Shown: positions 21,228-40,469, counted from the first letter of the stretch. The stretch is DNA of 42,466 bases from a virus (IMGVR_UViG_3300033145_000490:1-42466); one strand, 5' to 3'. Numbers and translations are program-made. The notes: generated from the letters alone by a model not told the origin.

Positions 21228-22211
21228 TTATTTCTTCTTAATGTTTAATTGACTGATTACCATTATTCGTCTTGCTTCTACTGCTGATACGTATTCATCT
21301 GCTCCTATATCCCAAGTTCCTGTTCTAGTTTCTCCATCTATATCATCTGAAAATGGATAAACCCCATCAGCAACAAGAGATGTTCCATAATCTAACGCAC
21401 CAGCATCCCCTGAGTCTAAATGAAAATCTGGGTCACCTACAAATGTAAAGGTTTGATTAATCCTATTTCCACCACCATCAGTAGTCCAATCCGAAGATTT
21501 ATTTTCTTTTAAAGAACAATTTGTAGCTACTAAAGTAGCCCCAGCATAAACCAAAAAAGCGTCAGTATGGTCAATTAAAAAATTGGTGCAAAAATTTGTA
21601 GTGTTTGCTCTACAAATAAATCTTCCCCCTATAAAAGTGCAATTATATATATACACACTGCTACCAACCCCAGTATGGTCAATATAGGAACCACTAAGAA
21701 AAATACAATTTACGAATATTTGATTTCCAGCACCAGCACCATCTGAAAAAGAGTGAGTAATTAAACAATTTCTGAATACAGTATTTCCACCTGCTGAAGC
21801 CAGAGTGGTAGTAGAATCATTCTGTATTCCATTAACAAATACATTACCAAAATAGAATATTATTGTGCTGGCACTATCTAAACGATAATAAGATGTAGAA
21901 TATACCCCTTTATGTCGTGCAGTAGGAGAAGTATAAATATTTATATAATCATCGGGAGTAGTAACATAATTATGTAATAATAATCTTGTTGTGTCGGCAC
22001 TTGTCCATCCATTACCACCTAACTCAGTTCCGATTATTTCAACATCAAACCAACCATCTCCAGTTAAGTCTTGTTCATTGGCACCCGTGCAAGCTTCTAG
22101 TGTTGTATAATCCCCATTACCATCTTCTTCTACTGTCTTATATAAAAATTGAGCAGCAAAACAGTTGGTGGTTAAAAAACAAAATAAGATTGTGATTAAA
22201 AACTTCTTCAT
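21228..22211 (-). CDS. Beta-helix (pectin-lyase-like) protein with signal peptide
   Basis: Leader MKKFLITILFCFLTTNCFA; repeated NC(L/I/T/S) rungs; DFHL...DIDGETR..WDIGADEY. Confidence 0.75.
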   Translation of the reverse strand: MKKFLITILFCFLTTNCFAAQFLYKTVEEDGNGDYTTLEACTGANEQDLTGDGWFDVEIIGTELGGNGWTSADTTRLLLHNYVTTPDDYINIYTSPTARHKGVYSTSYYRLDSASTIIFYFGNVFVNGIQNDSTTTLASAGGNTVFRNCLITHSFSDGAGAGNQIFVNCIFLSGSYIDHTGVGSSVYIYNCTFIGGRFICRANTTNFCTNFLIDHTDAFLVYAGATLVATNCSLKENKSSDWTTDGGGNRINQTFTFVGDPDFHLDSGDAGALDYGTSLVADGVYPFSDDIDGETRTGTWDIGADEYVSAVEARRIMVISQLNIKKK

Positions 22212-22672
22212 TGAGTTTTTATAGTTATATTTGATATAAAAGTATTCTTCTGCAACTTATTCACACTTATACTACTTTGAGATAATTGTTTAGCATTATC
22301 TACCACAATTTTAGGTATTTGGTGTTTTCTATGTTTAAGTATAATAGAATTTTCTGGGTCTGTATTATCTTCTAAACTTTCTTCATATTTTTTGGCATCC
22401 TCAATCTTCAAATCGGGTATTTTGATTACTATATAATTAGGTAAACATTCTTCCTTACCCCATTTCCAACCATCGGGTTTAACTACAATAATATCTCCTA
22501 TTTGAGAACGAGCTTCATAAGATTGTTTATCCCTAAAAGTTAATTTATCAATATCTTCCTGTTTAAAATCATCCATCCAATGTGGTTTGGCTTTAACAAG
22601 AAGTTCTGCTCCAAAGCAAGAAGAAGAAATTAAACAAAACAATATAGTTAAAATTATCTTTTTAATCATCAA
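22208..22672 (-). CDS. Hypothetical late protein with signal peptide
   Basis: Leader MIKKIILTILFCLISSSCFG; GDIIVVKPDGWKWGKEE. Confidence 0.75.
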   Translation of the reverse strand: MMIKKIILTILFCLISSSCFGAELLVKAKPHWMDDFKQEDIDKLTFRDKQSYEARSQIGDIIVVKPDGWKWGKEECLPNYIVIKIPDLKIEDAKKYEESLEDNTDPENSIILKHRKHQIPKIVVDNAKQLSQSSISVNKLQKNTFISNITIKTQ

Positions 22673-25064
22673 TCGTATATTCTACCATTAAACTTAATTC
22701 TGTCGCTGTGGCTACTGCTGATATATCTAAATCTATGTCCTCTGTCCTTGCTGTTATATTATCATAATCTGTATTTATGGTATCAACATCGCAACCAGAG
22801 GCACAGGAAGTCTGTCCGCCCGTATCGCAGACCAATTCCGCAGACAAAATATTATTATCAGAACCATCTTCTAAATTTAATTCTACTGTTCCCGCATCTG
22901 TTATACACTTTACAAATGTAATGGTGATGTCATTCGCAAAACCGCAAAGTAAATTATTCATCGCTTCAACGGCTGGAGTTTCAATCCAAGCTTTTACATC
23001 ATCGGTATAGAGTTCTGCATCAGCAGCTAAAGTAGCTCCCCCTATTGTTAAAGACCTTCCCTCTAAATCTGTAACTGCTGTGGCATCTGTAACAATAATC
23101 CCTGCTAGACCATCCAGTCTATCTAATTCGGCTACTGTGATAGTTTTAGGTGTAGAAGTTGTTATACTCGTTGTAATACCTAAATCGTTTATTGCAGATA
23201 CGTCTAAACTTCCATCAGCTATTACTGCCTTATTAGCTGCTACTGTACCATTCGTAATACCATCAAGTTTTTCTAAGTCTGTTTCGTTTAAGTCTGCTCC
23301 GCCTATAATAAAAGAACCTGTTGCTGTTATGGTACTTGAAGTCGCTAATGCTCCTGCTTCTGTAAGGCTCGCTATTTCAGCACTTGCTCCATCTGTAAAT
23401 GAATATTTATTAGAACCATTATTATCAGCGTCTATCTCAAAAACCATATCGTCATTATCGGCTAAAATACCTGCTAATGTTGCACCTGTTAAAACAGGAT
23501 TTGTATTAAATACAGCTAAAGGTGTGCCAGAAGCCGAGCCTGTCTCATCAGATAATAAACCAAAAAGATTTGCAGAGCTAAAAACATTTAAATCATCTGC
23601 TATATCCAATTTAGTCAAAGTTAAAATTTGTCCGCTAAGCGTAAGATAATCAGGAGTTCCTGCAAGTGAAACTGGGTCGTGAGATGAACCACCGCCACCT
23701 GTTACTACTGTCGGCTGAGTACCTCTTAAATCAACTGTTGAGATAAGTTCTAAATCACTTCCTGAATTAGTCCATTTCATCGTCAACCTAGCAAGCAAAT
23801 GTCCTGTGTTGCTATCTATAACAAATTCTCTGGGTAAAGAGTAAACATCACAGCCTAAGGAATCCAACTCTGCCCCTGATTGTGTAGAATAAGAACAAGT
23901 AGGAAGATTTACCATTAACGGAGCGTATTCGCTTGTCTTATTTCCAACCATCCATAAAACTAAATTATAATATCTTGCAGGATTAACATTCATAGGGTCG
24001 CCATCCGCATCTACTAAAAAATCATATAAGTCGTGTCCATCCTCATAAGCTGCAACTGAGCTATTAACCACGTGAAAATCATCATTACCTGGAGAGGTAT
24101 CTTTAGCAAGAATAGCTTGTCTATGAAATTGATATAATACACCTGCCGAAGTTTCCAAATAAACAGTATCAGGCGCAGCATCAGTTCTTGTAACATAAGT
24201 TCCGCCATCTCCATTTCCACTTAATCCGCTAAAATATCCATCTGCGCCACCCAATCTTATACGTTCTCCGAGATGCGCTAAATGCCCCTGGTCATTTCCA
24301 TTAACTAAATGATCATTCCAGTTTTGATTTATATAAATTCCATCTGCCTGAGCATAAGCAGCAGTAGGTACAAAGAAAAACCCAACTCTGATATGTTCTA
24401 CATTTGTAGGAAATTCAGTTGTTGATTTTACTAATGTAGCAGGAGCAGATTCTAATACATAGATAAAATTCTTTTGAGGAGCAGCATCACTAGCACCTAC
24501 TGTAAGGGCAATAGTAGAGCCACCTGTAAATACGCTATTACCACTTGAAAATTGAGAAGTTAGATTGCCACCTGCAGGATTAGTTACAGTTAAAGTTACA
24601 ACTGTTCCATTTGAAGTTACTAAGGCATTAAATGATTCTGCAAAAGTACCATTATAAAAATCTCCCTTAGTAGATGAAACTGCGCCAGAAGATACAGAGA
24701 AATCCCTTGCGGTAAAAGAAGCCACCCCCTTATTAGAATCAGAGGCATCTTCGCCTGAAACAACAATATTTCCATTAGCACCACCATCAGCTATATCTAT
24801 TGCTTCACCCTCAGTTAATACTCTTTCATCAGAAAGGTCTCCATCTAGGCTAAGGACAACGTATTCTGCATCTGTGGGAGCGCCTCCAGCACCTTCTGTA
24901 GCAACCTCTTCTATAGCAGCTTGAACATCAGTCGCAGTTATCGTTCCAGCAGGTGTAAAACTAATCCTCTTGGCTTTTGGATCCGCAGCATAACTATTTG
25001 TATTGATAAAACAAAAGTTTAATACTATTAAATATGCAAATAACACTCTTAAAATATTTTTCAT
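22662..25064 (-). CDS. Tail fibre-like protein with signal peptide
   Basis: Start moved to 25064 (AGGA upstream). Leader ends SYA; TDVQAAIEEV, SDETGS..LAVF and ELDRLDG fibre-type motifs; G/S/T/D-rich. Confidence 0.75.
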   Translation of the reverse strand: MKNILRVLFAYLIVLNFCFINTNSYAADPKAKRISFTPAGTITATDVQAAIEEVATEGAGGAPTDAEYVVLSLDGDLSDERVLTEGEAIDIADGGANGNIVVSGEDASDSNKGVASFTARDFSVSSGAVSSTKGDFYNGTFAESFNALVTSNGTVVTLTVTNPAGGNLTSQFSSGNSVFTGGSTIALTVGASDAAPQKNFIYVLESAPATLVKSTTEFPTNVEHIRVGFFFVPTAAYAQADGIYINQNWNDHLVNGNDQGHLAHLGERIRLGGADGYFSGLSGNGDGGTYVTRTDAAPDTVYLETSAGVLYQFHRQAILAKDTSPGNDDFHVVNSSVAAYEDGHDLYDFLVDADGDPMNVNPARYYNLVLWMVGNKTSEYAPLMVNLPTCSYSTQSGAELDSLGCDVYSLPREFVIDSNTGHLLARLTMKWTNSGSDLELISTVDLRGTQPTVVTGGGGSSHDPVSLAGTPDYLTLSGQILTLTKLDIADDLNVFSSANLFGLLSDETGSASGTPLAVFNTNPVLTGATLAGILADNDDMVFEIDADNNGSNKYSFTDGASAEIASLTEAGALATSSTITATGSFIIGGADLNETDLEKLDGITNGTVAANKAVIADGSLDVSAINDLGITTSITTSTPKTITVAELDRLDGLAGIIVTDATAVTDLEGRSLTIGGATLAADAELYTDDVKAWIETPAVEAMNNLLCGFANDITITFVKCITDAGTVELNLEDGSDNNILSAELVCDTGGQTSCASGCDVDTINTDYDNITARTEDIDLDISAVATATELSLMVEYTIDD

Positions 25065-25072
25065 AGTTAGTC

Positions 25073-25438
25073 CTAGGTTTTGATGTATTTCCCCCACAAG
25101 ATTTCGTCTGAATCGGGAGCAGACACTACCGTAACAATACCCGAGCTAGGCGTTGTTTCTGTAAAGTCCACTCCCCCTGGTTGTAAAGTAAGCTTGTCCC
25201 TAAATAATTGCATCGTTCCTGATACATAGGCATTGGCAAAAGTAAATATTACTTGCGCCCCATCTGTAGCAGGAGTTGGAATTTCAAAAGTTACAATATC
25301 TCCTATTTGCACAAAGGTCGATACTGGCTCATATCGCAAAGTGGTAGCGTTCCATTTTAACACTTCTCCATTAGAAGGGGCTTCCCCACTAACATCGGCA
25401 AAGCTTTTTATAGTTCTCCACCATCCGCTCCAACCCAT
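25073..25438 (-). CDS. Fibre adaptor-like virion protein
   Basis: DVSGEAPSNGEVLKWN and DG..VIFT...DFTET...AP motifs typical of fibre or adaptor domains. Confidence 0.6.
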   Translation of the reverse strand: MGWSGWWRTIKSFADVSGEAPSNGEVLKWNATTLRYEPVSTFVQIGDIVTFEIPTPATDGAQVIFTFANAYVSGTMQLFRDKLTLQPGGVDFTETTPSSGIVTVVSAPDSDEILWGKYIKT

Positions 25439-26292
25439 TATTTACTCCTTAGTTGATTTAATACCTCTATTTTTTCCATAGTCTCTTTTTGTCTTATAGC
25501 TAAGAGTTGTCCTTTTGCATCAATAGTTTTATCCTTATCATCTAACTCTTTATTGGATTGTTCAAGCACAGAAAATTGATGCTTTAAATTTTTTTCTCTT
25601 TTTTCAAGATCTTCTTTATTCAATGCTACTTCATCGATGTCTGTTTTGTTTTGCTCTTCAATTCTTTTTGCTTCGCAAAGTTTTTTATCTGCTTCATCTA
25701 GTATGCTCTGATTAGTTTCCTTTTGAGTATTTATTTCCTGTCTATCATTAGTTATAACCTTTAACTGCTGGTTTATATTATTTTGCCTGTTCATCAAAGT
25801 TTCTTCAAGACGATTTAATATTAGCTCACGTTGGTTTTGGGAATTTTCCTTGTTGTCTAATTCAACTTTTTTAGCATTGAGGGATGCTTGCAATATTAGG
25901 ACTTGACTTTTAATCTTCCCTGCCTCATCTATTAGAGATTGTGCCTCTTCTTCCTTCTGGCTGATTTCCCTTAAACTAGCCTCTCTCTTAGTCTCAAAAT
26001 CATTTATTTCTTGCTTTAAATGCTCTGCCTGGGTATTCGTTTCTTTAAATTGATTTTCACTTTCCTTTTTAATTCTATTTACATAATCCTCTGCTTCTAT
26101 TTTTGTCTTATCAGCAAGCTCAATCATCTCTTTGACCTTGGTTTCTGCTTCAAGGATTATCTTATCTGCTTTACTCTTTGCCTCAAGTAAAGGAATATTA
26201 ATATCTCGAACAATTTGAATTTTCTGTTTATTCAAAAGCTCGATTTCTTCCTTGAGTTTTACCAATATTATTTTTTCTTTAACCTCAATCAT
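25438..26292 (-). CDS. Long coiled-coil protein
   Basis: 284 aa of E/K/Q-rich heptads; SD GAGGAG. Confidence 0.75.
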   Translation of the reverse strand: MIEVKEKIILVKLKEEIELLNKQKIQIVRDINIPLLEAKSKADKIILEAETKVKEMIELADKTKIEAEDYVNRIKKESENQFKETNTQAEHLKQEINDFETKREASLREISQKEEEAQSLIDEAGKIKSQVLILQASLNAKKVELDNKENSQNQRELILNRLEETLMNRQNNINQQLKVITNDRQEINTQKETNQSILDEADKKLCEAKRIEEQNKTDIDEVALNKEDLEKREKNLKHQFSVLEQSNKELDDKDKTIDAKGQLLAIRQKETMEKIEVLNQLRSK

Positions 26293-26302
26293 AAGCTCCT
26301 CA

Positions 26303-26707
26303 TTATTGTGTGAATTTTTTTTGAAGCGAAATCCAGATATTTATTACTGTATCGGTAACCGAAGCCGTCTGCTCTGTTATCTTGAATCTGACATATAATA
26401 AAGGTAAAGGAGTAAATCCTGCGTGTTGTATTGTCTTGCTGGTTAGCGCAGATTCAATATCGGCTATTCCTTGAGGAACAGCAAAATTTGAATCTGCTGC
26501 ATTTCCCGTAGCAGGAGCCACCCTGCCTTGCTCCATTTCTATTTTAAGACCAGGGGTTCCCGTACAGGCGACAAGATAACTTAATGCAAAAGTATCGGTA
26601 TCTCCAAATTTATATGCATCAGTATAAACCGTTGTACTCTTAGGAACAGAAATATCCTCGCTTTCAGCTAAAGTTATAGCAAACGACTTAGGCTCGTTCA
26701 TTAACAA
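26303..26707 (-). CDS. Beta-sandwich virion protein (cement-like)
   Basis: Beta-strand pattern ending YVRFKIT; the start may be 26701. Confidence 0.6.
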   Translation of the reverse strand: MLMNEPKSFAITLAESEDISVPKSTTVYTDAYKFGDTDTFALSYLVACTGTPGLKIEMEQGRVAPATGNAADSNFAVPQGIADIESALTSKTIQHAGFTPLPLLYVRFKITEQTASVTDTVINIWISLQKKFTQ

Positions 26708-26716
26708 CCTCCCTTG

Positions 26717-27166
26717 TTATTCTCTTCCTACAATATAAACTTCTACATCCAATAAATCATCCGCATCGGTATTAGTAGCCACTACATTAACTCTTACATA
26801 AGGAACGCATATATCTTTATCAAACCAAAAATAGAAACTTCCATCAGAAGAAATAGTCTCCGTAGTTTGCAGCGTTGCCCCACCTGCATAATCATAAAAA
26901 TTAGCGTCAAGGTAGGTAGTCCCGTCAAAAGAAATATCAATAGTTATGGCGGCAGAAATTGACAATCCGACCTCTGTTTCGGCGTAATCTACAAGAAATG
27001 CCACCTTGTCGTAACCCTGGATATATGTTGCGGTGGAATCCGCATCAGTAGTTACTGCATTAAATGTCTCGTCCATTATTTCGGTTACTTTAAGAATCCT
27101 TGCTGCCTCCGCTGTTCCGACCATTACAAATAAAGCTAATAATGCTAATATTAAAAATCTCTTCAT
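26717..27166 (-). CDS. Beta-sandwich virion-type protein with signal peptide
   Basis: Start moved to 27166 (SD AGGAGGAGG). Leader MKRFLILALLALFVMVGTAEA; ISFDGTTY and PYVRVNV. Confidence 0.75.
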   Translation of the reverse strand: MKRFLILALLALFVMVGTAEAARILKVTEIMDETFNAVTTDADSTATYIQGYDKVAFLVDYAETEVGLSISAAITIDISFDGTTYLDANFYDYAGGATLQTTETISSDGSFYFWFDKDICVPYVRVNVVATNTDADDLLDVEVYIVGRE

Positions 27167-27179
27167 AGTCCCCTCCTCC

Positions 27180-27416
27180 TTATGTATAAACTTCTTTTGG
27201 TTTTTCAAAATCTACATTAATATAACCACCACACTGGGCAGGGTTAAGTTCATCGTGAGTACAGCTATGGTATCGAGTTTTCCTATGGCAAAGTATTTTC
27301 TCATCACCCTTTGGCTTATACGCCTTGTTCTTTTTTTCCTCAATAAGATTCAAAATATCTATAGCATCTTTCTTGTTATCAAATGATATGTCGATTTCTA
27401 ATCTATGTTTAGCCAT
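27180..27416 (-). CDS. Hypothetical protein (78 aa)
   Basis: HSCTHDE...C motif; SD AAGGGGG. Confidence 0.7.
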   Translation of the reverse strand: MAKHRLEIDISFDNKKDAIDILNLIEEKKNKAYKPKGDEKILCHRKTRYHSCTHDELNPAQCGGYINVDFEKPKEVYT

Positions 27417-27425
27417 TATTCCCCC

Positions 27426-30400
27426 TTAATTATTTTCTAACATAAATTCCGACCAAAGTAATCTTCTAAAAGATTCTGCTTCCCCACTCATTAAATCTAA
27501 AATTCCTTTGATGGTTCTTCGTGGTTGTGCGTATGGCATTTGAAGCCATACAGCCAATATAAAAGATGCTTTCTCCATCGCCTTCATATATTCTTCATTC
27601 TCAATATTTGATTTCATAAATTTAAGATTATTCATAATAGAACTTGCAGGACTTATTGATGGCTCATAACCCCTTAAATAAGCCATGCTCATATTACCAA
27701 TTATAGGTATAGAGGCAATCGTTGAACCAAATATAGCATCGAAGAAATCATCGGGATCTTGAGGTAGTCTCCCATGAGACATAATATATATCAGGGTAGA
27801 AGAAACAATTATAGAAGCTATCCCCATGGTTGCTCTTGCATATTGTCCCTTGCTTATCTCTCTCGGCAAATCAGCTCTTGTCATATTCCATATCTGATTA
27901 AGCTGGTTAGTAAACATCAATCCCAATCTTAAAAACTCGCTATTAGTTCGATAAAGTGCTGGTAAATCCTTAACTCCACCTTGAGGTTGTGTCTCTATAA
28001 CTGCCTTATGAGCTATATTTTTTGCTTCAACTATAGATTTTGTCTTTGACTGATGCCTATATACAGCATCATAAACAGATAAAACAGCATATTTATCCAT
28101 CTGCATTATCATAGCAAATGCTTTTTTATCTATCGCTTTAGAAGCAACAAGCAAAGCTCTCTTAATATCACTTTCGGGTAATGCTTCTATAGTCTTTAAC
28201 AAATCTTTAAAATCTCTTGATACAACCCTATTTTTTAGTGATGGATCTAACTCGTATATTTTATCTCTATTTTCTTTAAACAACATCCTTTCCATGCTTA
28301 TAGCCATATCCTGTGGAGTAGTATATTTTAAAGCCAATGCAAGCGAAGGAAACTGTTTGCCTGCGGTAACTACGTTAAAACCTAAATATGCTTTTGATAA
28401 ACCTAACCTAACAGGTTTTATAACTCTATTGACATATCTTTCTATCCAATTCGCCCCTTGAAACATCTTGGCAGGATTAACATTAACATCCAAATAATCA
28501 TTTAACCATTTCCAAGATGCTTGTCCATGATTATATTTGACGGCATCTTGTAAATCTGGATCATCTAAAATCTTATTAAATGCTTTCTGTAATGGTGCAT
28601 AAGCAATAAGATGTTCCTGGCTTTCAATTATCTTTATAGCATCTCCCATAAAATCAAGGCTTATCTCTGATTGATATTTTTCATCTAATTCTTTACGGGA
28701 ATAAGTATTCTTTTTGTCTGCGGAAGTATAAGTAAATCCTGCACCTTTCCTAATTATCTGTTCGTTTATCATCTCTGTTTCAATATCAAGATTTAACTCT
28801 TCCTGAGAAATACCACCCTTACCTATTCTCTTTATGGGAAAATAAACCTCAACTCTTTCCATCTCTACATTGAAATAAGTCTCTACAGTCTGAGCATATT
28901 CATCCGTTCTTTCAGAAACAATCTTTTGAACTTCATCGGCAAATTTAATATAATCAGGATAATCAGCCTTTACAGAATCAATAAAAGCAGTAATTTCTAC
29001 ATCAGTAAGATTATTCCCAAACTTTAAAGCATCGTAAGATTTTTTATCCTTAGTAGCTAAATACATTCTTAATATATTATTGACTTGATAAGATTTTCCA
29101 TCTATCTCAATCAATCTGCCTAAGTTAAAAAAAGTAACCTTGTTATCTTCCATAGCCTGTTCTATTTTCTTCTTACGCAACCAAGAATATACTCCTCTTT
29201 GCATATCAGCATTGTCAATGCTATCATAAATTAAGTCTTCTCCAATATCTCCAAACAATCTTCTAATCATTCGTAAAGGTCTTAGGGTAATAATATCGGC
29301 AACTTTCAATAAAGGAGATCTCTTAGCTCTACGCTCTTCCAATGAACCCTTAGAAAACATCCCTGCCTTAGTTCCACCAGCTTGTTTAATTAAAGCAGCT
29401 CTTAATATCTCAGAAGCTACCTTGCGCTGTTCTTTTTTAGTTGTAAATACTTTTTTGCCAGTTTCTTTTAATTCAGCCAAAGTATCCGCTAACTCAACTA
29501 ATTCATTAACAGACATAGCATTTAGGGCCTTCTTGCGAACTTGTTTTTTATCTCCTAGCTTATTAAGAATATCATTTATCTTTTTTTGATATGTAACATC
29601 AATAATATTCTCTGGCTTCTTGGGTTGTTTGAGGATTTTTTTGACAAGCCCTCTCTTTTCAGCGGCTTCTTCCAATCTTTCAATACGTTCTTCAATAACT
29701 GGTAATGCTTTAGAGAGTTGATCGGCTGTCTGTATGTTTTTAATTGCTTTAATAAATTTAGCTTTATCTTTAGCATCAAGACCAGATGCTTTTAAAAGAT
29801 TTATCAATTCGGTTTGGATGCTTTTAACTTCTTTTTTCTGAACAAACTTTCCAGCTCGGATACCTCTATCTATATCTTTAATACGTTGTTTAAGAATAGT
29901 AGTCTCTTTTTTAGTAACTAACTGAGCTTTATTCTCTTGGATGGTCTCTTTAAGTTCTTTCCTAGTTGATTCTAAATTTTGCAAATATTCTTTTAAAGCA
30001 ACTTCATCGGTTAATTCAACTCCTTGTTCTCTCAACTCTTCTAATACTTCATCTGGAGTAATAGCTTTTGGATCTGTAGAAATATAATACTTCGGGATGC
30101 CAGTCAACTCTTCTTTAAGAAACTCATCTTTATATTTTTTAATTCTACCCTTGAATTGTTCACGCTTTGTCTCTATATCCTCAAGCGCAAATTCAGCCAC
30201 AAAGATACGCTTCTCACGGTCTTCCATATCTTCAATCTGCTTAATAAGGATAGTCTTTCCAGATACGTCTTTTTTAATAGTCTTTGGAGTTACTTTAGGC
30301 TTTTGCACTTCTTTAACATTAGCCTCTACTATTTGTTGGGCTTTTTTCTGTTCAGGAGTTATTTCAGGTTTAAGTTGTGCTTGTTTCCAAATATCGGTGA

Positions 30401-32330
30401 GTTGTTGTTTGGTTTTAATTTGAGATTTATCTAATACTATCGTAGTAACGCCTTTAATAGCATTTTCTACATCATTGAACACAATAGCGTCATATCCCAT
30501 TTTTTTAAGTTTAGGTAATAATTTAAAACGAGATATTAAATCTTCCAAAGGTTTATAAAAACTATCTGTTGGTTTATATTCATCATAATAACTATTTCGC
30601 ACCATATTTCCCAATTCCCATTTATTAACTTTTTTATCAATAGGAAGCATATTTACCAAATCATCAAAACTTTTTATGTTGGTCAAATCTAAAGGTTTTG
30701 TAATATTGAGAGAAGTTTCTATAATATTTTTACCAAACTCACTTGCCAACTCTTTTGAAGTTGTAAAATAAATCCCAAAAGTTTCGCTTGGGGTTCCTAA
30801 TACTTCTTGAGCTAATTCTTCTGGCATTTCTTTTGGAGTTAAAAATTCTTTAAATTTAGAAGGAGTCCCGTGATAAAACTTCTCTTGGCTTGCCACAAAC
30901 TCCTCCGCAGTTTTATACTTTTTAGCTTCTTCTATAAGTGGCTCTATGATGCCCTCTTTCCCCTTAGGAATTGGCTCAGGTGCGACTTTTATGGGTTCAA
31001 TTAACCCCTTATCCACAAATTCCTGATATACCCTATTTAGCTCTGTAAGCTCATCTATGGACAAATCCTGTCCAGAAGCGGCTTTTACAACAACTTCAGC
31101 CCTTAATTTACCTGCTTCAAAGGTTTGACCTAATTTAACTGACATCTGATCTTTTTCATTTTCAGAAAGATTATTAATTATCTTATCAATATCCTCTTGT
31201 GATCTTCTTTTTCCTCTAAGATGATTATTAAGAACCTGTGAAGAAGCACCCATGCCACCATACATAGCAAATGCTCCAAGTTCTACTGAAGCCTGATCCC
31301 ATCCAGGGAATACAGCCTCTTGCAGTTTATCTAACATAGAAATTTCTCTTTCGTCTAATCCCGTTACTGCTCTTAACAAAGCTCCAAATCTTTCTTCTCC
31401 GTATTCTTCTATGAGTCCATCCCAACCACCCTTAGACATTAATTCAAATATTCTTCCTTTAGGTATTTTTTTAGCTATCCCTTCGGCTATTTTTGAAAAT
31501 ACCTCTTTTGTCGCTTCTGGCATACGATTCAACATTCCTCTTGTGGCAACTTTCCCTATAGGTTTGAATAATTGACCTCCCATAGTTTCACTGTAAAACT
31601 CCACAAAAGTATCTCCGTATGCTTTCATAAAAGCAACCACGGGGGTTTCTGCTGAATCCTCTATAAGTTGAATACCTTTATCGGTAATAGCAAGATGTTC
31701 GTTTAAACTTTTTTGAGCATAATTAGAAACATATCTATGGGGTAAAACTGTAGTCCTAGCTAATCCTACAACAGCTTCTCTTCCTAAAACTTCAACTCCT
31801 TTTCGTAACAAGCTTTTCTTAGCAACTTCTCCTGCTACTTTAACTCCTGCTTTCTGGATCCCTGTTCTAATAGCAGTAGCCAGTCCGCCAGTCAAAGCCA
31901 TTTCCATAGCGAAAGTAGGGATATTAGCAACAATACGATAGACATTCTTTCCCCAAGTAGATCCTCTCACCCTTACTTCTTCCTGCCTTAACATTACATC
32001 TCTCAAGACTTCCATATCATTTTCTTTACTTCCTTTATCTTCGTAATCATCATCTCTTAATCTATTTACAAGTCCCCAGAGAGAACCCGAACCTGCAACT
32101 TGTCCATAATAAATATCACTACCTTTTGTTTTAGCAGCATATTCCCACCAACCTTCAGTGCCTTGTTTAGACCATTCATATCTTTGCTCTGGGGTAGAAA
32201 GCATAAATTCACCTTCTCCAGCCTGAAAAGTTTTTAAACTAACGGTATCATCCTCTAAGATAGGCTCAGGACTTCGTTTTTCTTCTATAGGAATTAATCC
32301 AGATTTCTCTTGTATTTCTATTAATGGCAT
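27426..32330 (-). CDS. Large internal virion (ejection) protein, polyvalent, with an ART-like domain
   Basis: 1634 aa, helical, last of three internal-virion genes. Has YHGT...GIYFT...GYDAIVF, and a C-terminal A...VIETQP...LMFTNQ region. Confidence 0.8.
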   Translation of the reverse strand: MPLIEIQEKSGLIPIEEKRSPEPILEDDTVSLKTFQAGEGEFMLSTPEQRYEWSKQGTEGWWEYAAKTKGSDIYYGQVAGSGSLWGLVNRLRDDDYEDKGSKENDMEVLRDVMLRQEEVRVRGSTWGKNVYRIVANIPTFAMEMALTGGLATAIRTGIQKAGVKVAGEVAKKSLLRKGVEVLGREAVVGLARTTVLPHRYVSNYAQKSLNEHLAITDKGIQLIEDSAETPVVAFMKAYGDTFVEFYSETMGGQLFKPIGKVATRGMLNRMPEATKEVFSKIAEGIAKKIPKGRIFELMSKGGWDGLIEEYGEERFGALLRAVTGLDEREISMLDKLQEAVFPGWDQASVELGAFAMYGGMGASSQVLNNHLRGKRRSQEDIDKIINNLSENEKDQMSVKLGQTFEAGKLRAEVVVKAASGQDLSIDELTELNRVYQEFVDKGLIEPIKVAPEPIPKGKEGIIEPLIEEAKKYKTAEEFVASQEKFYHGTPSKFKEFLTPKEMPEELAQEVLGTPSETFGIYFTTSKELASEFGKNIIETSLNITKPLDLTNIKSFDDLVNMLPIDKKVNKWELGNMVRNSYYDEYKPTDSFYKPLEDLISRFKLLPKLKKMGYDAIVFNDVENAIKGVTTIVLDKSQIKTKQQLTDIWKQAQLKPEITPEQKKAQQIVEANVKEVQKPKVTPKTIKKDVSGKTILIKQIEDMEDREKRIFVAEFALEDIETKREQFKGRIKKYKDEFLKEELTGIPKYYISTDPKAITPDEVLEELREQGVELTDEVALKEYLQNLESTRKELKETIQENKAQLVTKKETTILKQRIKDIDRGIRAGKFVQKKEVKSIQTELINLLKASGLDAKDKAKFIKAIKNIQTADQLSKALPVIEERIERLEEAAEKRGLVKKILKQPKKPENIIDVTYQKKINDILNKLGDKKQVRKKALNAMSVNELVELADTLAELKETGKKVFTTKKEQRKVASEILRAALIKQAGGTKAGMFSKGSLEERRAKRSPLLKVADIITLRPLRMIRRLFGDIGEDLIYDSIDNADMQRGVYSWLRKKKIEQAMEDNKVTFFNLGRLIEIDGKSYQVNNILRMYLATKDKKSYDALKFGNNLTDVEITAFIDSVKADYPDYIKFADEVQKIVSERTDEYAQTVETYFNVEMERVEVYFPIKRIGKGGISQEELNLDIETEMINEQIIRKGAGFTYTSADKKNTYSRKELDEKYQSEISLDFMGDAIKIIESQEHLIAYAPLQKAFNKILDDPDLQDAVKYNHGQASWKWLNDYLDVNVNPAKMFQGANWIERYVNRVIKPVRLGLSKAYLGFNVVTAGKQFPSLALALKYTTPQDMAISMERMLFKENRDKIYELDPSLKNRVVSRDFKDLLKTIEALPESDIKRALLVASKAIDKKAFAMIMQMDKYAVLSVYDAVYRHQSKTKSIVEAKNIAHKAVIETQPQGGVKDLPALYRTNSEFLRLGLMFTNQLNQIWNMTRADLPREISKGQYARATMGIASIIVSSTLIYIMSHGRLPQDPDDFFDAIFGSTIASIPIIGNMSMAYLRGYEPSISPASSIMNNLKFMKSNIENEEYMKAMEKASFILAVWLQMPYAQPRRTIKGILDLMSGEAESFRRLLWSEFMLENN

Positions 32331-32331
32331 T

Positions 32332-33951: not shown

Positions 33952-33963
33952 GATTTATCCTTT

Positions 33964-34623
33964 TTAAAATTGTATTAAATTTTGACTACCTGCTCTTGGC
34001 GTCAGGCTAGTCCCGCCACCACCACCAGGAACCCTTAAAGCACTAAATCCAGCTACCGTTGCTGCCGTTGATAGCAAAGTAGTACCCGCTTTAATCCTTG
34101 CAGCTCTTCTTGCATTTTTAGCAGCAACTTCATATTGAGAAGCTTCAGATCTTAAACCAAATGCTCTAAATTTAGCTTCTTCTCCTACCGTATAAATATC
34201 TCTTTTTGCTGCTTCGCTTAATTCATAGCTTCTTATATTAGCATTATACCTTATGGCTAGTTGATCCATAATTGACTTATTTGAAGTATCAATAGTTATA
34301 TCTGTAGCTGTAACTCCACCAATACCTAATGCCCCAATAGCTGCTCTTTGAGAACCTGACAATACAGCTACTTCCCTGGCTAATCGTTTTGATTCTTGAG
34401 CTGCCCCTGTCTGAACAGCTGAAATATTAATACCAGCAGTTTGTTCAATTAATCTTTTTTGCTGTTCTGCATATTGTGTTACAACATTAGCTTGTTGTTG
34501 TTTAAGAGAGGCTTGATACTTATAAGCTCCAGCAGCAGCCTCACCTTGTTGAAGCTGACCAGCGATTTGAAATCCTCCTGCAACAATGGCGGTTGTAACT
34601 CCAATAGTAATAGGATCACACAT
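33964..34623 (-). CDS. Internal virion protein (T7 gp14/Bbp11-like)
   Basis: MCDP start with hydrophobic helix, Ala/Gln-rich, GSQRAA..A.G, IRYNA. Confidence 0.8.
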   Translation of the reverse strand: MCDPITIGVTTAIVAGGFQIAGQLQQGEAAAGAYKYQASLKQQQANVVTQYAEQQKRLIEQTAGINISAVQTGAAQESKRLAREVAVLSGSQRAAIGALGIGGVTATDITIDTSNKSIMDQLAIRYNANIRSYELSEAAKRDIYTVGEEAKFRAFGLRSEASQYEVAAKNARRAARIKAGTTLLSTAATVAGFSALRVPGGGGGTSLTPRAGSQNLIQF

Positions 34624-34625
34624 AA

Positions 34626-35114
34626 TTATCTCCTAAATTCAAAATATTGAAAAGGTTGCTGTTCTACTCCGTAAATAACTACTGGCCCTAACTTAGCCCC
34701 ACACCATTTAAGCCACTTGATTGATTGTTTGTTTTCTACGTCAACAAAATTAAAAAGCAAAGGATAATAGCCAAGCATTAAATCAATGAAGTGCCTTGAA
34801 TGTTTTATAAATGTTTTTTGAATTTCATTTAACCTGGGAGAAGCAAGCAACCAAATAAAAGCATTATTGCTTAGAAACATCTCGGGGACTATCCCGAACA
34901 TAGCTATCGGAGATTCTTTATACTCAACTGTTGAACAAAACACCGATTCAGTATGCCCACTTAATAGGGCTTCTTCTGGAGTCCTATGGTGAGATTTCCA
35001 TATCTCCTTCTTATCGGCTTCTCTCATATTCTTAGCTAATTCAAATACATCCTCTATATTAGAATCCCTAACTAATGCCAGTCTAGTTTTATAATAACAT
35101 TCTACCTTTATCAT
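34626..35114 (-). CDS. T7 gp13-like GNAT-fold virion assembly protein
   Basis: MREADKKE, AMFG, IWLL, LFNFVDVENKQSIKWLKWCG. Confidence 0.82.
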   Translation of the reverse strand: MIKVECYYKTRLALVRDSNIEDVFELAKNMREADKKEIWKSHHRTPEEALLSGHTESVFCSTVEYKESPIAMFGIVPEMFLSNNAFIWLLASPRLNEIQKTFIKHSRHFIDLMLGYYPLLFNFVDVENKQSIKWLKWCGAKLGPVVIYGVEQQPFQYFEFRR

Positions 35115-38071
35115 ATCTTTTGACTTTGACCTCCGACTGTTACAACAGGAATCAAGGTTGTTATCGTTATAGGTAGTGGATCGGACTGCCTGATAAACAT
35201 TTTTGCATTACTCGAAAAACCACCGCCTAAAGTAGCAGGAATATCACCCGAGTAAAGAGAATCCAAATCATACCCGCTAATAGCGGCATAATTCAAAGAC
35301 TTTAGATCACTTGAACTTACGCCTATATTTCCACCTTGAGAATTTATTACCCTAAGCATAACCTTAGAAATCTTTGATTTTCTACTTTGGATCGTTCCCT
35401 CTTCCGTCGTCATATCAACATTTAAACTTTCAAAATCCGCATTATAAGGCAAACCCACCTGGACTACGAAAGCTTCTGCGTCTAAAGTAATCTGTCCATT
35501 GGCTACGACTTGTCGATCCTGAACAACCCCATCCGCCAGAATAGCCACGGTTTTACCGTTAAGATGTTCTAAACCCGTTATTGTATCTGTAGCTATAATA
35601 GAGTCATAGGTATAGCCCGAATCAACAAAAAATTGATCCTCTAGGTCAGTCGAGGCATTTCTGTCTTGCATTATTTCTATATGCCTTATCCCTGCCCTAT
35701 TTACAACTACCCATACTTCATCATAGTTATCGCCTCTGATTACAGAAACCGATTCAAACAAATCATCCCCATCATTAGTATCATGCCAAGTCCAAGCTAA
35801 AACTTCCTGATCTTTCATATAGGTCATTGACAATAGTTTGCCATCATCCCTCACAGCCCATAAAATTCTATCAGGATTCTGCTGATAATCCATCTCCGTA
35901 ATTTTATAATTTGTAAATAAATGATTAGAATAAGGAGTTAAATCATCTCCTATAAAACTATCAGAATATAAATCAAAGCCTAAATCTCTAACAATAGAAC
36001 CTGTTGATTGAACATAGATTGCCCTGTTTCCGATTATTACAGGTCTTGTGCCGTAAGAACCTTCCCAACCATGAATCCTATTTTGTATTGTAGTAGGAGA
36101 TATTGCTCCAGAGATAGAACGTACGCTACACTCATTAGAAAGCGTAAGCATAATCATCTCAGTAAAAGATACTATCCCATTGATACCATTTACTTTCCTG
36201 GACGGCAAAGGAGAAGAAATCCCGTCAGAAGCAACCAACGGAGAACTCCTCAAAAAGCTAGTATAATTTCCTGTTTCTGTCATCCAATACGTTTGTGGTT
36301 CAGTATATGTATTAGCGAACACCAACCTATCATCTGGATGAAACTCAACCGTCGAAGGCCATCCCCTTAACGGAGACCAAGAACCCTCCGCCCAATCCGC
36401 TGTGGCATCTGTGGATCCTAAGTTTCTCTTAACAGTAGCGGTAGCGGTAATTCCGTTTGCAGCTACAGCAGTAATCTTGGCTATTCCTATATGAGTATAA
36501 GGATCTGAAGATAAATTAACACTACAAGTTCCACTACCAAATACCGTGCAATTTATTCGTATTTGAAAAGGCTCCGCATGGTTAGACATATCTTCTGTGC
36601 CAAAAGTATCAACATTAAAATCATCTGCGGAAGAAAACTCTCTAAGCATAGTCCAGTTTGAACCACCATCTATAGACTTTTCTATTCTTATGGTTGCAGT
36701 CCAAGTACCATGGGTAATCAAACGCCATGTCCCTCCACAGGTTATTGCACTTTCCGCACCCGTACCTGTTATATCAGCAGAGTCAGCTTGGCCTTCTATA
36801 AAATGTCTCAACTCATACAAAGCCCCTACTGAATCGCTATAATCAAAAAGAAAACTTGCCGCTGTCAATGTTACTGATCCTGTGAGAGCAGAGGCGGCTA
36901 TGGTATCTGCTGCGTCTATATTGCCCAACTGAAATGGGCCTCCCTGATAATCGTAAGCCACTATCTGCCAACTCGTAGCAGAGAGTCTTTCTAACTGCAT
37001 AGGAGCATGATCTGGATGAGTAATATACAACACATCGGCAGACTGGGTAAAATTAAGGTTTGGCAATTCGGCTTCTAGATAAGGAGTGGCAACTTCTATG
37101 GGTTGAAGTGATGTAGCGTAAGCACTCGTAGGAGGAGAAAAATTTTCTGTCCATCTGGCTATGCCTTTTGAAACTCTTACTTCATCTATCCAACCATTAA
37201 CATAATCCTGTGGAACGCCTAAAGCACCTATATATAATGTTCCAGTGAAGTCAGTAAGAGTAGCAGAATAAGAACCATCCGTGAGAGTTAAATCCTGAGA
37301 AATTCCATTTATAAATATATACCAAATATTACCATTTCTAACTATTGCTATATGATACCAAGTATCTACCGATGGTGTCCAAGTGCATCTAAAACTTACA
37401 TCTGATACTCCACCATTATTTGAGTGGAAAGTTAATAAATGATTTGCGTTATCATAATTTATATCCCAACCGTGAGTAGCATCTTCAAATTGGTCTATAA
37501 AACGACAATCCTGCAAACCGTTGAATCTACCCCAAAAATCAATAGTAAGATCACCCGCCCCGAAATTCCAATCATTTGAATCTGGAAGCGTAACATAATC
37601 AGAATCACCATCTAAATGCAAGCTCGCCCCGCCGAACTTAGATTGAGCGGTATCTAGTTCGGCTGTTCCTACAAAAGTATAAGCTCCTGCTATTGGATCG
37701 GTATAAGCTGTAGCCCCATCAGAGCCATCAAAATGACTGGCGGTTTTGATAAAATCGTCCCAACCGTCTGCGCCGACTACCTGTCCACCATTAGCAAATA
37801 TCCTAAAATATTTATTGCCAAATTCAAGATTATAAGTCTGAGTCGTAGAGAACTCAAAGGGGATAAGCCTAACTGCCTTTCCGCTGTATTTACTAGTTGC
37901 TATATACTTAAACCCTGGTCTATTTGATATACCCCCATGCCTATGAACTATAAAGTTTCTAAGCTTTCTAGCCCCTATTGAATATTTAGCTAGGTCTACT
38001 CGAGAGTATAACGCAGGAGCAAGTTCTCCTCCAGCAAATGAAGTTTTGATTCCAATTACAGGTTTTGGCAT
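35111..38071 (-). CDS. Tail tubular protein B (nozzle) with an inserted LamG domain
   Basis: SFAGGELAP..RVD..KY, HGG..RPG, QSADVLY, GWPS, YQQNP..LW.VR.DG, AWTWH, GLEHLNGKTV, VGLPY. Confidence 0.9.
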   Translation of the reverse strand: MPKPVIGIKTSFAGGELAPALYSRVDLAKYSIGARKLRNFIVHRHGGISNRPGFKYIATSKYSGKAVRLIPFEFSTTQTYNLEFGNKYFRIFANGGQVVGADGWDDFIKTASHFDGSDGATAYTDPIAGAYTFVGTAELDTAQSKFGGASLHLDGDSDYVTLPDSNDWNFGAGDLTIDFWGRFNGLQDCRFIDQFEDATHGWDINYDNANHLLTFHSNNGGVSDVSFRCTWTPSVDTWYHIAIVRNGNIWYIFINGISQDLTLTDGSYSATLTDFTGTLYIGALGVPQDYVNGWIDEVRVSKGIARWTENFSPPTSAYATSLQPIEVATPYLEAELPNLNFTQSADVLYITHPDHAPMQLERLSATSWQIVAYDYQGGPFQLGNIDAADTIAASALTGSVTLTAASFLFDYSDSVGALYELRHFIEGQADSADITGTGAESAITCGGTWRLITHGTWTATIRIEKSIDGGSNWTMLREFSSADDFNVDTFGTEDMSNHAEPFQIRINCTVFGSGTCSVNLSSDPYTHIGIAKITAVAANGITATATVKRNLGSTDATADWAEGSWSPLRGWPSTVEFHPDDRLVFANTYTEPQTYWMTETGNYTSFLRSSPLVASDGISSPLPSRKVNGINGIVSFTEMIMLTLSNECSVRSISGAISPTTIQNRIHGWEGSYGTRPVIIGNRAIYVQSTGSIVRDLGFDLYSDSFIGDDLTPYSNHLFTNYKITEMDYQQNPDRILWAVRDDGKLLSMTYMKDQEVLAWTWHDTNDGDDLFESVSVIRGDNYDEVWVVVNRAGIRHIEIMQDRNASTDLEDQFFVDSGYTYDSIIATDTITGLEHLNGKTVAILADGVVQDRQVVANGQITLDAEAFVVQVGLPYNADFESLNVDMTTEEGTIQSRKSKISKVMLRVINSQGGNIGVSSSDLKSLNYAAISGYDLDSLYSGDIPATLGGGFSSNAKMFIRQSDPLPITITTLIPVVTVGGQSQKI

Positions 38072-38353
38072 TTATGCCTCGTCTAATATGCTTTGTTTAT
38101 CTTTCCCATCTTTAACTATTTCACCTTTCTTTAATTCCAGCGAAACTCTTTTGGCGTATCTTGTATCTTCCATCCCGCTTATCCTACCCTTTGCCACAAA
38201 AGAAATATTATCGTCGACTTCTAATTTTAATCCTTCAATAAAGTCTAAGGGCAAATTAATCTCAGGGTAAATTATTCTGTTCTTCTCTGATTGAACTGTC
38301 CCAGGACTATCATACAACTGACTTGACTTCTTGCCTAAATCCTTCATTGCCAT
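38072..38353 (-). CDS. Small virion-module protein
   Basis: MKDLG...YP.I.L pattern; between tail tubes A and B; strong SD. Confidence 0.65.
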   Translation of the reverse strand: MAMKDLGKKSSQLYDSPGTVQSEKNRIIYPEINLPLDFIEGLKLEVDDNISFVAKGRISGMEDTRYAKRVSLELKKGEIVKDGKDKQSILDEA

Positions 38354-38364
38354 GGTTCTCCTCC

Positions 38365-38979
38365 TTATCCTCTTGAATCCGCTATATATGATTTTTGGTT
38401 AGCAGTATTTTTTTCTTTACTCTCCATGCTGCTTTGTCTCTGCGCCTCACTTATCAATGTATTAAAAATGGCTATCTCTTTAGCCTGAGTGCCTTCGTCG
38501 GCATTAAGTGGAATAGCAATATTAGAAGCCAATATATGAGAGAATGTTTGTATAAAATGAGAATCGAATTGTGTGGTATCAATAATATAATGAGTGTATT
38601 CCGCATAGGCATCTTCAAGGTTTGTAACTATCACCTGTTCGTCCTCACTCGCATCATACATTATCTTGAAATCATAACCTATATTAAGTTCGATTGCTTC
38701 CCCGTCAAAAATCTTCCTTATCGCAAGACAATCAGCAGGATAGTCGTACGCATAATCATATACTAACGGAGTATATGTAGCTTCGACCAAAGCGAGATGC
38801 ACCTTAGCAAAAGACCAGTTAAATCCCCTCAACGCTGCCTTTAAAGATGGTACCCATTGTCGATTTAGTGCTTCAGCTTGAATCGTACTATCTGCATCAA
38901 GTTGAGCCTGGGTTACTTTAGTTTGTGCAATATGATCTAACGCCAAATTACCGATAATAAGGTTGACTACACTCTCCAT
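38365..38979 (-). CDS. Tail tubular protein A (adaptor, T7 gp11-like)
   Basis: NLALDHI, LRGFNWSFAK, YAYDYPADCL, FD..F...LA..IA.PL. Start moved to 38979 (SD GGAG). Confidence 0.88.
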   Translation of the reverse strand: MESVVNLIIGNLALDHIAQTKVTQAQLDADSTIQAEALNRQWVPSLKAALRGFNWSFAKVHLALVEATYTPLVYDYAYDYPADCLAIRKIFDGEAIELNIGYDFKIMYDASEDEQVIVTNLEDAYAEYTHYIIDTTQFDSHFIQTFSHILASNIAIPLNADEGTQAKEIAIFNTLISEAQRQSSMESKEKNTANQKSYIADSRG

Positions 38980-39956
38980 GATACCTCTCCTTTTATTTTT
39001 TGCGTGGTATAAGCCAAAAAAGCTAATAGCATAAATACGCAATGGATCTGTCTTGTAGGAAAATATATAGCCATATTAAGAGATATTATTAATAGAGAAA
39101 ATAAAATAAACCAATCTTTCCTCCACAACTTTATAACCATATATACAAATGCGGAAAAAACCAACCCAAACCCTATACTCCCAAACTCGAATAAGATTTG
39201 CAACCAGCAATTATGGGCTGTATAAAATACGCCTCTAGTGGTAACTCCGTGTTCTGCCAATACAGGAAATAATGTTTTATAGGTTGACATCCCAAAACCA
39301 ACTACCGGATGAATTATAGATAACTTAAGCGTATCTATCCATACAGGAAGCCGGATAAGAGAAAAATAATATAAAGAACGATCCCATTTAGCATAAAATC
39401 CTACCAATGAGGCTAAAATAATAATTGACAACAAGGATACTATCTTATTCTTAAATATCTTAGGCTTGCATAATGCAAACAACAGGCAAACTGCAATAAT
39501 TATAAAACTCTTAAACTGCATTAAATTGCCTATTACTCCCCAACACTCCGGTTCCTTAGCTCCAAAATTCAACAATGTATCGTAACCTATTTTCTGCATT
39601 AAAAATAAAAAGCACTGAATGAGAATAATAATCTTCAGTGCGTTAATTACAGGTCTCCAATCTCTCAGATTGAGACACAATATGTAATAATAAATCCCAA
39701 TAATAAAAACAACGTATGCGGTAAAAGATATGTAAGGTGCTCTACTTAAAAAACAATTAACAAGGGCATATATAGCTATAATCTTTACAAACTTACTTAC
39801 GTCCAAAAATAGAGTATATAATCCTGCGAACCCTGTTAAGAGAACCAACCAAATCCAATAGTTGTTACCAACCATAGGGATCCGAATATCCAATGGTGGG
39901 TACAGGGCAAACAAAACGATTGGCAATGTAACCAATAAACTATGTATTTTTTTCAT
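38967..39956 (-). CDS. O-antigen ligase / O-oligosaccharyltransferase family (Wzy_C) membrane protein
   Basis: About 10 hydrophobic segments; RLPVW...HPVVGFGMSTY...AHNCWLQILFEFGSIG signature. Confidence 0.88.
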   Translation of the reverse strand: MKKIHSLLVTLPIVLFALYPPLDIRIPMVGNNYWIWLVLLTGFAGLYTLFLDVSKFVKIIAIYALVNCFLSRAPYISFTAYVVFIIGIYYYILCLNLRDWRPVINALKIIILIQCFLFLMQKIGYDTLLNFGAKEPECWGVIGNLMQFKSFIIIAVCLLFALCKPKIFKNKIVSLLSIIILASLVGFYAKWDRSLYYFSLIRLPVWIDTLKLSIIHPVVGFGMSTYKTLFPVLAEHGVTTRGVFYTAHNCWLQILFEFGSIGFGLVFSAFVYMVIKLWRKDWFILFSLLIISLNMAIYFPTRQIHCVFMLLAFLAYTTQKIKGEVSWRV

Positions 39957-39964
39957 AGTTGTCT

Positions 39965-39994
39965 GGGAGAGAAACTAATTAAAGTCTCTCTCCC
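39965..39994 (-). promoter_or_regulatory. Hairpin with UUAAUU loop just upstream of the Wzy_C gene
   Basis: GGGAGAGAGACT-TTAATT-AGTTTCTCTCCC. Confidence 0.55.
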
Positions 39995-40001
39995 TTAATT
40001 A

Positions 40002-40469
40002 TTATTGGTTAACAGTAGCTCCATACGTCCCAATTACAATCCAACCTGTAGTATCATCAACGTAGTATAATGTTATAGACTCGCCTGCTGCGTCCAATGT
40101 GAACGTCGCAAAACCTGATGTCGTTGCAGGTGTCACTACACTACTTCCACTACCTACCAATACAGAACAGTACATAGTAAATACTTGTCCTTGTACCCCG
40201 TCGTCTAAAACACAAGCCTGAGTAGTATTCGGAACAACTTTGGCCATGACTGTATACGACGAAGAAATATCTGCAGCAGTAGAAGAAGCTGTACTCGCTC
40301 CCCCCCTATTAAATCCTACATGAAGAAAATCATAGGGCAACTCTCTACCTAATAACCTAACTCGGTCTACACCTCCCCAGTTGTTAAAATTAGTAGTAGA
40401 GAAAGCGAGAGGAACAACGAGAAAAACTAGAACTAACAGCACTAACAGTGAAATAAGTATTTTTTTCAT
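40002..40469 (-). CDS. Ser/Thr-rich head-fibre or decoration-like protein with signal peptide
   Basis: Leader MKKILISLLVLLVLVFLVVPLAFS; C-terminal L.DG..GQ...TLDAAGESITLYY...GWIVIG; follows the capsid and cement genes. Confidence 0.72.
   Translation of the reverse strand: MKKILISLLVLLVLVFLVVPLAFSTTNFNNWGGVDRVRLLGRELPYDFLHVGFNRGGASTASSTAADISSSYTVMAKVVPNTTQACVLDDGVQGQVFTMYCSVLVGSGSSVVTPATTSGFATFTLDAAGESITLYYVDDTTGWIVIGTYGATVNQ

Follow-up and report, generated by a model that had tools for sequence, protein, structure and literature searches.

Sec-like leaders on five late proteins of an uncultured tailed phage, and a Wzy_C ligase gene paired with its likely capsid spike

Why would a tailed phage place export leaders on late, virion-type proteins, when tailed-phage assembly is, to our knowledge, regarded as entirely cytoplasmic? 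The question is raised by IMGVR_UViG_3300033145_000490, a viral sequence of 42,466 nucleotides (the window, that is, the whole stretch analyzed) in which five late proteins, here called SP1 to SP5, begin with Sec-like leaders. The window, recorded as a complete virus, carries a terminal repeat of 114 bases; its identified genes all lie on the minus strand, and Pfam and PHROG matches of its open reading frames (ORFs) mark it as a BPP-1/T7-like podophage. Directly behind SP1, a likely capsid spike, lies a Wzy_C gene that the original prediction overlooked, and which provides a concrete candidate for its suggestion that the exported proteins are modified in the periplasm. The feature is genuine, and it is both conserved and widespread. 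Its proposed mechanism is plausible and unproven, and we hold in even balance a reading in which the decorations leave the cytoplasm, a lipid-linked glycan of the host is likely transferred to the spike, and the exported proteins are added to particles at lysis.

All five ORFs claimed by the original prediction were recovered on the minus strand with their leaders: SP1 (40002..40469), SP2 (26717..27166), SP3 (22662..25064), SP4 (22208..22672) and SP5 (21228..22211). The SP1 leader (residues 1-24) reads MKKILISLLVLLVLVFLVVPLAFS/T, the slash marking the predicted cut, and the others end in GTAEAA (SP2), TNSYA/A (SP3), SSCFG/A (SP4) and TNCFA/A (SP5), which places the predicted cuts of SP1 to SP5 behind residues 24, 21-22, 26, 21 and 19, respectively. 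Strong ribosome-binding sites precede the chosen ATG of SP1 and SP2; those of SP3-SP5, which overlap or abut the preceding gene, are weak or absent. Leaders were called with a custom heuristic for a basic n-region, a hydrophobic h-region and small residues at -3/-1, which was positive in 7 of 59 minus-strand ORFs (the five SPs, the ligase through its first helix, and one early ORF when read from an alternative start) and flagged 3 of 575 internal 45-mers as a control. By the same measure the major capsid protein (MCP), Bbp16-type cement, portal, tube, nozzle and gp13-16-type proteins are leaderless, as the original prediction had noted for core capsid, portal, tube and ejection proteins, and no membrane anchor or lipobox was found behind any of the five leaders.

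Homologues tend to keep these leaders. They were called in 78 of 106 homologues of SP1, in 49 of 55 of SP2 and, for the SP3 core domain, in 20 of the 150 top matches among 3362, with a pattern that is conserved while the sequences diverge. Two loci, L200 and L202, hold leaderless SP4 and SP5 homologues that begin M-AELL.. and M-AQFLYKT../M-ATQLKKT.., respectively; these starts correspond to A22 of SP4 and A20 of SP5 in the window, the predicted mature N termini, which indicates that the leader is a module added to otherwise complete proteins. We consider leader cleavage and export highly probable. The DNA similarity among the SP3-SP5 leaders is modest and A+T-rich and does not establish a leader duplication. 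In relatives, the podovirus fibre N-terminal domain, which normally starts at residue 1, stands behind a leader in 3 of 10 matches, from two lineages (L192; L091/L093), at the fibre gene position. One nozzle ORF among 62 (L004:10115-13288) has a leader-like extension of 26 residues, preceded by a ribosome-binding site. Leaders on the fibre N-domain and nozzle of relatives are hard to explain by display on the surface of the infected cell. Further small leader-bearing genes lie between portal and scaffold genes in two other loci (L114:6224-6586 and L119:6934-7296).

The gene behind SP1 (38967..39956, minus strand) encodes an O-antigen-ligase-like polytopic membrane protein of 329 residues, with about eight helices by a heuristic count, in which Wzy_C (PF04932) is the only Pfam domain (E 4.2e-9; 36.8 bits vs. 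a cut-off of 31.7). A profile of its family matches the ligase WaaL (PDB 7TPG) with E 2.1e-8 and sets R202 and H248 opposite R265 and H313 of 7TPG (numbering counted from the alignment). Both residues and a GxG motif are invariant in all 55 clusters of the family, most of whose members are 315-400 residues long; we take the aligned Arg and His of WaaL to be catalytic. The gene lies on the late-gene strand, within the head-tail block, and all 27 of its database homologues are on contigs of 45 kb or less. NCBIfam gave no match to it, nor did a tblastn search of 50,697 deposited phage records, and SP1 is likewise unmatched in cultured-phage records; in IMG/VR, a single-sequence query found nothing and an alignment query gave matches.

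Stem-loops flank SP1 on the minus strand. One precedes SP1 (40490..40513; -18.3 kcal/mol, z -2.7) and a second separates it from the ligase (39965..39994; -21.2 kcal/mol, z -6.3). A hairpin is present at the first position in all eight relatives folded, with no conservation of sequence, and at the second in seven of eight, the eighth having a gap of 10 nucleotides. A weak scan of the gaps before SP1 and the ligase revealed no sigma-70-like site. No ribosome-binding site was seen upstream of the ligase ATG; a strong site for SP1 and none for the ligase would be the pattern expected where the gene of an enzyme follows that of a structural protein.

Seen from the ligase, the pairing with SP1 is strict. 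We examined 51 ligase loci, duplicates included, of which 46 have upstream DNA, and an SP1-family gene lies directly before the ligase in every one of these; a leader was called in 44, the other two being a truncated gene and one whose n-region is acidic. Counted from the side of SP1, clusters at 90% identity from the SP1 search divide into 17 with leader and ligase, 5 with leader only, none leaderless with ligase, and 34 leaderless only, so that a ligase stands behind 17 of 22 leader-bearing homologues and 0 of 34 leaderless ones. When all loci are counted, the corresponding figures are 29, 6, 0 and 35 (70 clusters, 11 of 81 having been dropped for short flanks). Of the five 90% clusters with a leader and no ligase, L163 proved on inspection to be miscalled, and L149 represents a second paralogue located behind a ligase. 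The pair is found with three capsid families (PF20911, PF19821 and PF25209), and the ligase tree mixes the GP7 and PF19821 capsid types, with five switches, at least four of them forced by well-supported branches, and no separation of the types in any of 200 bootstrap trees; a tree of the short spike domain is also mixed and is poorly resolved. Distant capsid relatives that we inspected (L010-L012, L015-L018) have neither SP1 nor ligase at the corresponding place, and a further arrangement occurs in G010, where two other leader proteins follow the capsid gene and the ligase, a more distant one, comes two genes after them.

The original prediction described the mature part of SP1 as a head decoration, and both its fold and its gene position support a virion-type domain. 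An AlphaFold model (predicted local distance difference test score, pLDDT, 84; first 30 residues low) gives VIA Z scores of 11.5 to the Solidus gp83 tailspike [root-mean-square deviation (rmsd) 2.0, 88 residues aligned], 10.2 to residues 79-180 of CBA120 TSP4 (rmsd 2.9, 95 aligned), 8.8 to the phage KP1 baseplate and 7.5 to the Pa223 capsid spike. The model has the beta-sandwich of the T4 gp9/gp10-type (XD) spike domain. Foldseek matched 89 viral models at E<=0.001 and, weakly, the same spike and baseplate proteins in the PDB; there was no useful PDB sequence match. In a viral fold library, the domain also matches predicted proteins labeled Marseillevirus, Faunusvirus and Mimivirus.

Leaderless relatives of SP1 lie one or two genes behind capsid genes of P22 type (seven tested), HK97 type (four) and Mu type, and some are fused to Phage_cement_2; by this position and fusion, SP1 belongs to a head-decoration family some of whose members have leaders. 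The conserved N-terminal arm behind the SP1 leader has the form W-G/H-x-x-D in 13 of 13 phages with a GP7 capsid (12 by regular expression, one by eye) and in 0 of 17 PF19821 phages, which fits a capsid-specific docking arm. A complex prediction of MCP, two copies of Bbp16 and SP1 scored 0.00 and weighs neither way. S63 of SP1 is a candidate glycosylation site, chosen post hoc: the column is Ser/Thr in 26 of 29 ligase-linked proteins and in 0 of 30 leaderless ones, and it is one of many columns and confounded by ancestry. Second SP1-family paralogues lie elsewhere in the late region of three loci (L089:5627-6184, L100:3970-4587, L149:5745-6275). In three others (L120, L147, L157), a PF25209 or HK97-type capsid gene is followed, one or two genes on, by a longer leader-bearing SP1-family protein that has no ligase with it, and exported head decorations may extend to other phage groups.

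The remaining exported proteins differ in how well their mature parts can be assigned. SP2, which had been predicted to be a cement-like beta-sandwich, is a jelly roll (model pLDDT 93) that matches a cement less well than other proteins: the best VIA Z scores are to YomS (13.1; rmsd 2.1, 106 aligned) and XepA (12.8), followed by a phage 7-7-1 capsid chain (9.3) and the BPP-1 cement (9.2). It has no similarity to the neighboring 134-residue ORF. SP3, proposed as a tail fibre, has behind its leader a 774-residue mosaic protein that is fibre-like by its homologues only, with no direct Pfam, PHROG or PDB match. Its 3362 relatives at E<=0.001 are mosaic proteins matched mostly over residues 135-460, a segment that recurs in more than 1000 proteins at E<=1e-30; those checked are mostly leaderless, and in some carriers other parts of the protein match tail or fibre PHROGs. 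SP5, as proposed, is a beta-helix, and a right-handed one: its best ESM Atlas feature matches are to viral clusters (0.96 and 0.94; TM 0.77-0.79), followed by Beta_helix/NosD. SP4, left unassigned by the original prediction, still has no fold and no usable Atlas match, and a profile of SP4/SP5 gave no useful PDB sequence match. SP4 is the N-terminal partner of SP5, to which it is fused in three of five related loci (L197, L201, L203), the two proteins being split and leaderless in L200 and L202. The fusions (L197:12254-13774, L201:9938-11596, L203:8760-10361) keep an internal N/K-A-Y/F-A/A site after an amphipathic stretch at the start of SP5, and are possibly polyproteins cut by signal peptidase. 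In the leaderless SP5 relatives (L200:10402-11781, L202:10423-12546), the beta-helix comes with very long stalks of Ser or of Ser-Pro-Ala, and NeuB, cytidylyltransferase or GT2 genes lie alongside, an arrangement suggestive of a second, cytoplasmic way of making glycosylated appendages.

How could these elements work together? We propose that the five late proteins would be exported through Sec and their leaders cleaved, and that the Wzy_C protein would move a lipid-linked host glycan en bloc onto SP1 in the periplasm. Such a transfer is likely by analogy with the pilin-TfpO/TfpM pairs described below, and we lean slightly toward SP1 as the acceptor. The donor would be the host's undecaprenyl-pyrophosphate glycan, which we assign to the host because no glycosyltransferase was found in the window genome. 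Assembly of the capsid, cement, portal, tube and ejection proteins would stay cytoplasmic as usual; the exported parts would be added to completed particles once the inner membrane opens at lysis, a joining that we infer, and SP1 and the fibres probably end up on virions. Of the original proposal that outer parts are exported, export together with virion-type folds is supported for SP1 and SP5; SP3 is fibre-like through its homologues only, and for SP2 a virion role is doubtful. Because some relatives export fibres without a ligase, we regard export as the broader trait and the ligase as an add-on tied to SP1.

Known systems offer partial precedents. In TfpM, a conserved His of the Wzy_C domain is required, and the genes of its cognate acceptors directly precede tfpM (PMC9829042). 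The phage locus resembles pilA-tfpO and pilin-tfpM in that a Wzy_C enzyme is encoded immediately behind an exported protein, there the acceptor, and the pilin oligosaccharyltransferases (OTases) have an essential His and use a lipid-linked glycan outside the cytoplasm (PMC9829042). It differs in that the upstream gene encodes a phage spike instead of a type IV pilin, that only 4 of 29 of the SP1 proteins end in Ser/Thr, and that the enzyme has 329 residues vs. 420-470 for TfpO/TfpM as given there (PMC9829042); C-terminal glycosylation of the TfpO type is ruled out by these ends. PglL and PglS, at 520-600 residues, are longer still, and the extra C-terminal periplasmic domain is missing from the window protein in Pfam. 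SP1 and the ligase would work like a pilin-OTase pair, and the ligase falls outside both TfpO/TfpM and PglL/PglS. WaaL (PDB 7TPG), whose acceptor is lipid A-core, is similar in the profile match over the periplasmic loop, with its aligned Arg and His; unlike WaaL, the window protein is phage-borne, shorter and located in a head-gene operon.

Phage-encoded Wzy_C membrane proteins occur in the phage D3 Wzy-beta cassette and as VarioGold VG_p25, the latter also with a signal-peptide gene upstream (PMC9658991). Those are genes of temperate phages, and VG_p25 is read in the opposite direction to the late genes (PMC9658991), whereas the window ligase has no sequence match to them, no accompanying integrase match and a partner with a capsid-spike fold. 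A glycan on a tailed-phage capsid is documented for mycobacteriophage Che8 (Freeman 2023, as cited in PMC11256854), where phage glycosyltransferases act on capsid proteins with neither export nor a ligase. The proteins XepA of PBSX and YomS of SP-beta share the jelly roll of SP2 (Z ~13), and XepA is exported during phage development; they belong to Gram-positive prophage lysis cassettes, unlike SP2, a single domain with a classical leader (PMC6834076). Virion proteins also pass through Sec in filamentous phages (10.64898/2026.09.15.751708). These differ from the window phage, which has an HK97-type capsid with portal and terminase and exports proteins without a predicted anchor. Filamentous-phage coat proteins have signal peptides, are membrane-anchored and are assembled during extrusion; the glycosylation of the Che8 capsid is reportedly cytoplasmic.

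Several observations weigh against the proposed mechanism. The rows of the co-occurrence count are phylogenetically dependent, so that its Fisher value of 3e-10 overstates the case. A complete genome (G012) and one 88% complete (G005) have exported proteins and no detected ligase or SP1, which means that export does not depend on glycosylation; leader-bearing SP1 relatives lack a ligase in three HK97-like or other phages as well, and one locus (L203) combines a leader with cytoplasmic glycosyltransferases. Wzy_C proteins include both polymerases and lipopolysaccharide (LPS) ligases, so that the class of acceptor is unreadable from the domain; the window copy lacks ~35 residues present in some relatives and is shorter than known OTases and WaaL, and the SP1 proteins depart from the TfpO/TfpM acceptors at the C terminus. 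The match between arm and capsid could be due to linkage alone, since recombination between lineages can start only in the shared domain. A fibre docking N-domain was not detected in the window, which leaves SP3-SP5 without a candidate docking domain. SP2 is possibly not part of the virion, given that it is closest to YomS/XepA and that XepA is exported yet absent from mature particles (PMC6834076); SP2 homologues are also frequently found among holin-like genes.

These points feed alternatives of unequal weight. The outer parts could be exported and join the virion for folding, or to sequester sticky or lytic fibres, while host LPS or surface polysaccharide, and not SP1, is the substrate of the ligase, which would mask the receptor during infection. 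Export without a ligase in G012 and G005 speaks for this, as do the seven Cys residues each in SP3 and SP5 and the known alteration of O-antigen by the D3 Wzy_C polymerase (PMC9658991). However, SP2 and SP4 have one Cys each and the MCP and nozzle also contain Cys, and an LPS-acting ligase leaves the pairing with leader-bearing SP1 (17/22 vs. 0/34; 46/46) across at least three capsid lineages unexplained; we consider this explanation unlikely, with a real share of the probability. A further alternative is that the exported proteins are not virion parts at all, being decoys, superinfection blockers, adhesins or, for SP2, a XepA-like lysis helper, and that the ligase remodels the cell surface. 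The likeness of SP2 to XepA/YomS, the frequency of SP5-type beta-helices among secreted bacterial proteins and the undetected tail docking domain fit this idea. Against it, leaders in relatives precede genuine fibre N-terminal domains at the fibre gene position, SP1 occupies a head-decoration position where leaderless relatives follow capsid genes, anchors and lipoboxes are absent after the leaders, and no other fibre candidate was identified in the genome. We judge it improbable, slightly more so than a ligase acting on host polysaccharide.

The Wzy_C domain and the hairpins that flank SP1 are also what one might see in a D3-like lysogenic serotype-conversion moron, made up of SP1 and a Wzy-beta-like polymerase and lodged in the head region, with the other leaders unrelated. 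The marks of a D3-type cassette, a temperate phage, a moron position and iap/oac partners, are absent, though: the ligase shares the strand of the late genes within the head-tail block, PHROG scans of 56 window ORFs gave no integrase or repressor match, the scan for sigma-70-like sites and the tblastn search of phage records were negative, as reported above, and the fold of SP1 is that of a spike. Moreover, in D3 and VarioGold the ligase genes lie opposite in strand to their neighbors (PMC9658991), and this origin seems very improbable. Finally, the leaders might be uncleaved membrane anchors or miscalled starts, given that the calls depend on a heuristic and that the ribosome-binding sites of SP3-SP5 are weak; the conserved small-X-small sites, the leaderless homologues that begin at the cut site and the low control rate (3/575) make this hardly credible.

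If export with periplasmic glycosylation is correct, several unrelated capsid lineages would have a periplasmic or post-lysis decoration step, phages would encode their own protein O-oligosaccharyltransferase, and particles would be dressed in the host's own surface sugar. The enzyme would represent a compact class (~330 residues) with a non-pilin acceptor, relevant to glycoengineering, and a function would be gained for many genes that viral metagenomes now list, under names such as "secreted hypothetical" and "O-antigen ligase", among morons or auxiliary genes. We found no description of exported or OTase-glycosylated tailed-phage virion proteins in a literature search judged mostly on titles and abstract openings, whose coverage mostly excluded subscription journals. 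The general form of the proposal, that a broad group of uncultured tailed phages build an outer virion layer in the periplasm from Sec-exported spikes, fibres and, in certain relatives, the fibre docking domain or the nozzle, that a phage oligosaccharyltransferase there coats the capsid spike with host glycan, and that assembly is completed only after the inner membrane opens, is one we advance tentatively, with doubt somewhat outweighing belief.

The rest of the podophage genome comprises terminase, portal, GP7 capsid, Bbp16 cement, tube, a nozzle with a laminin-G insert and gp13-16-type internal proteins, all features below being on the minus strand where coordinates of the late block are given. 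Upstream of SP1 lie the BPP-1-type MCP (41000..42019; PF20911, E 2.8e-125) and the Bbp16-type cement (40522..40950; PF21190, E 1.5e-6). Three leaderless ORFs of 134, 284 and 121 residues (25073..26707) stand amid the exported genes, with matches to phrog_28213 (unknown), to weak unknown PHROGs and, far below cut-off, to an SMC-like coiled coil; they are possible cytoplasmic adaptors or chaperones. Probable lysis genes follow SP5 (20073..21155): an 81-residue ORF that has no family match and is holin-like by its C-terminal helix, a 70-residue ORF, and a C92 papain-like peptidase (PF05708, E 1e-4, below cut-off). An SLT lytic transglycosylase with an N-terminal hydrophobic segment lies at 18649..19152 (PF01464, E 1.4e-14). 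Lipoprotein genes are present in the lysis regions of four relatives, which fits a host with two membranes, and none was found in the window. A GTDB scan for the host returned distant capsids only, at 46-49% identity and lower, and identified no host; an Omnitrophota host, which was considered, gained no support; a cold-shock protein gene (13606-13806) is a possible host clue. The large terminase (3660-6185) carries a LAGLIDADG homing-endonuclease insert, probably an intein, and a ParB/DNA-methyltransferase gene (6551-7221) appears in the form of two ORFs. The gp16-type internal protein (27426-32330) has an ART-PolyVal ADP-ribosyltransferase domain at residues 484-640.

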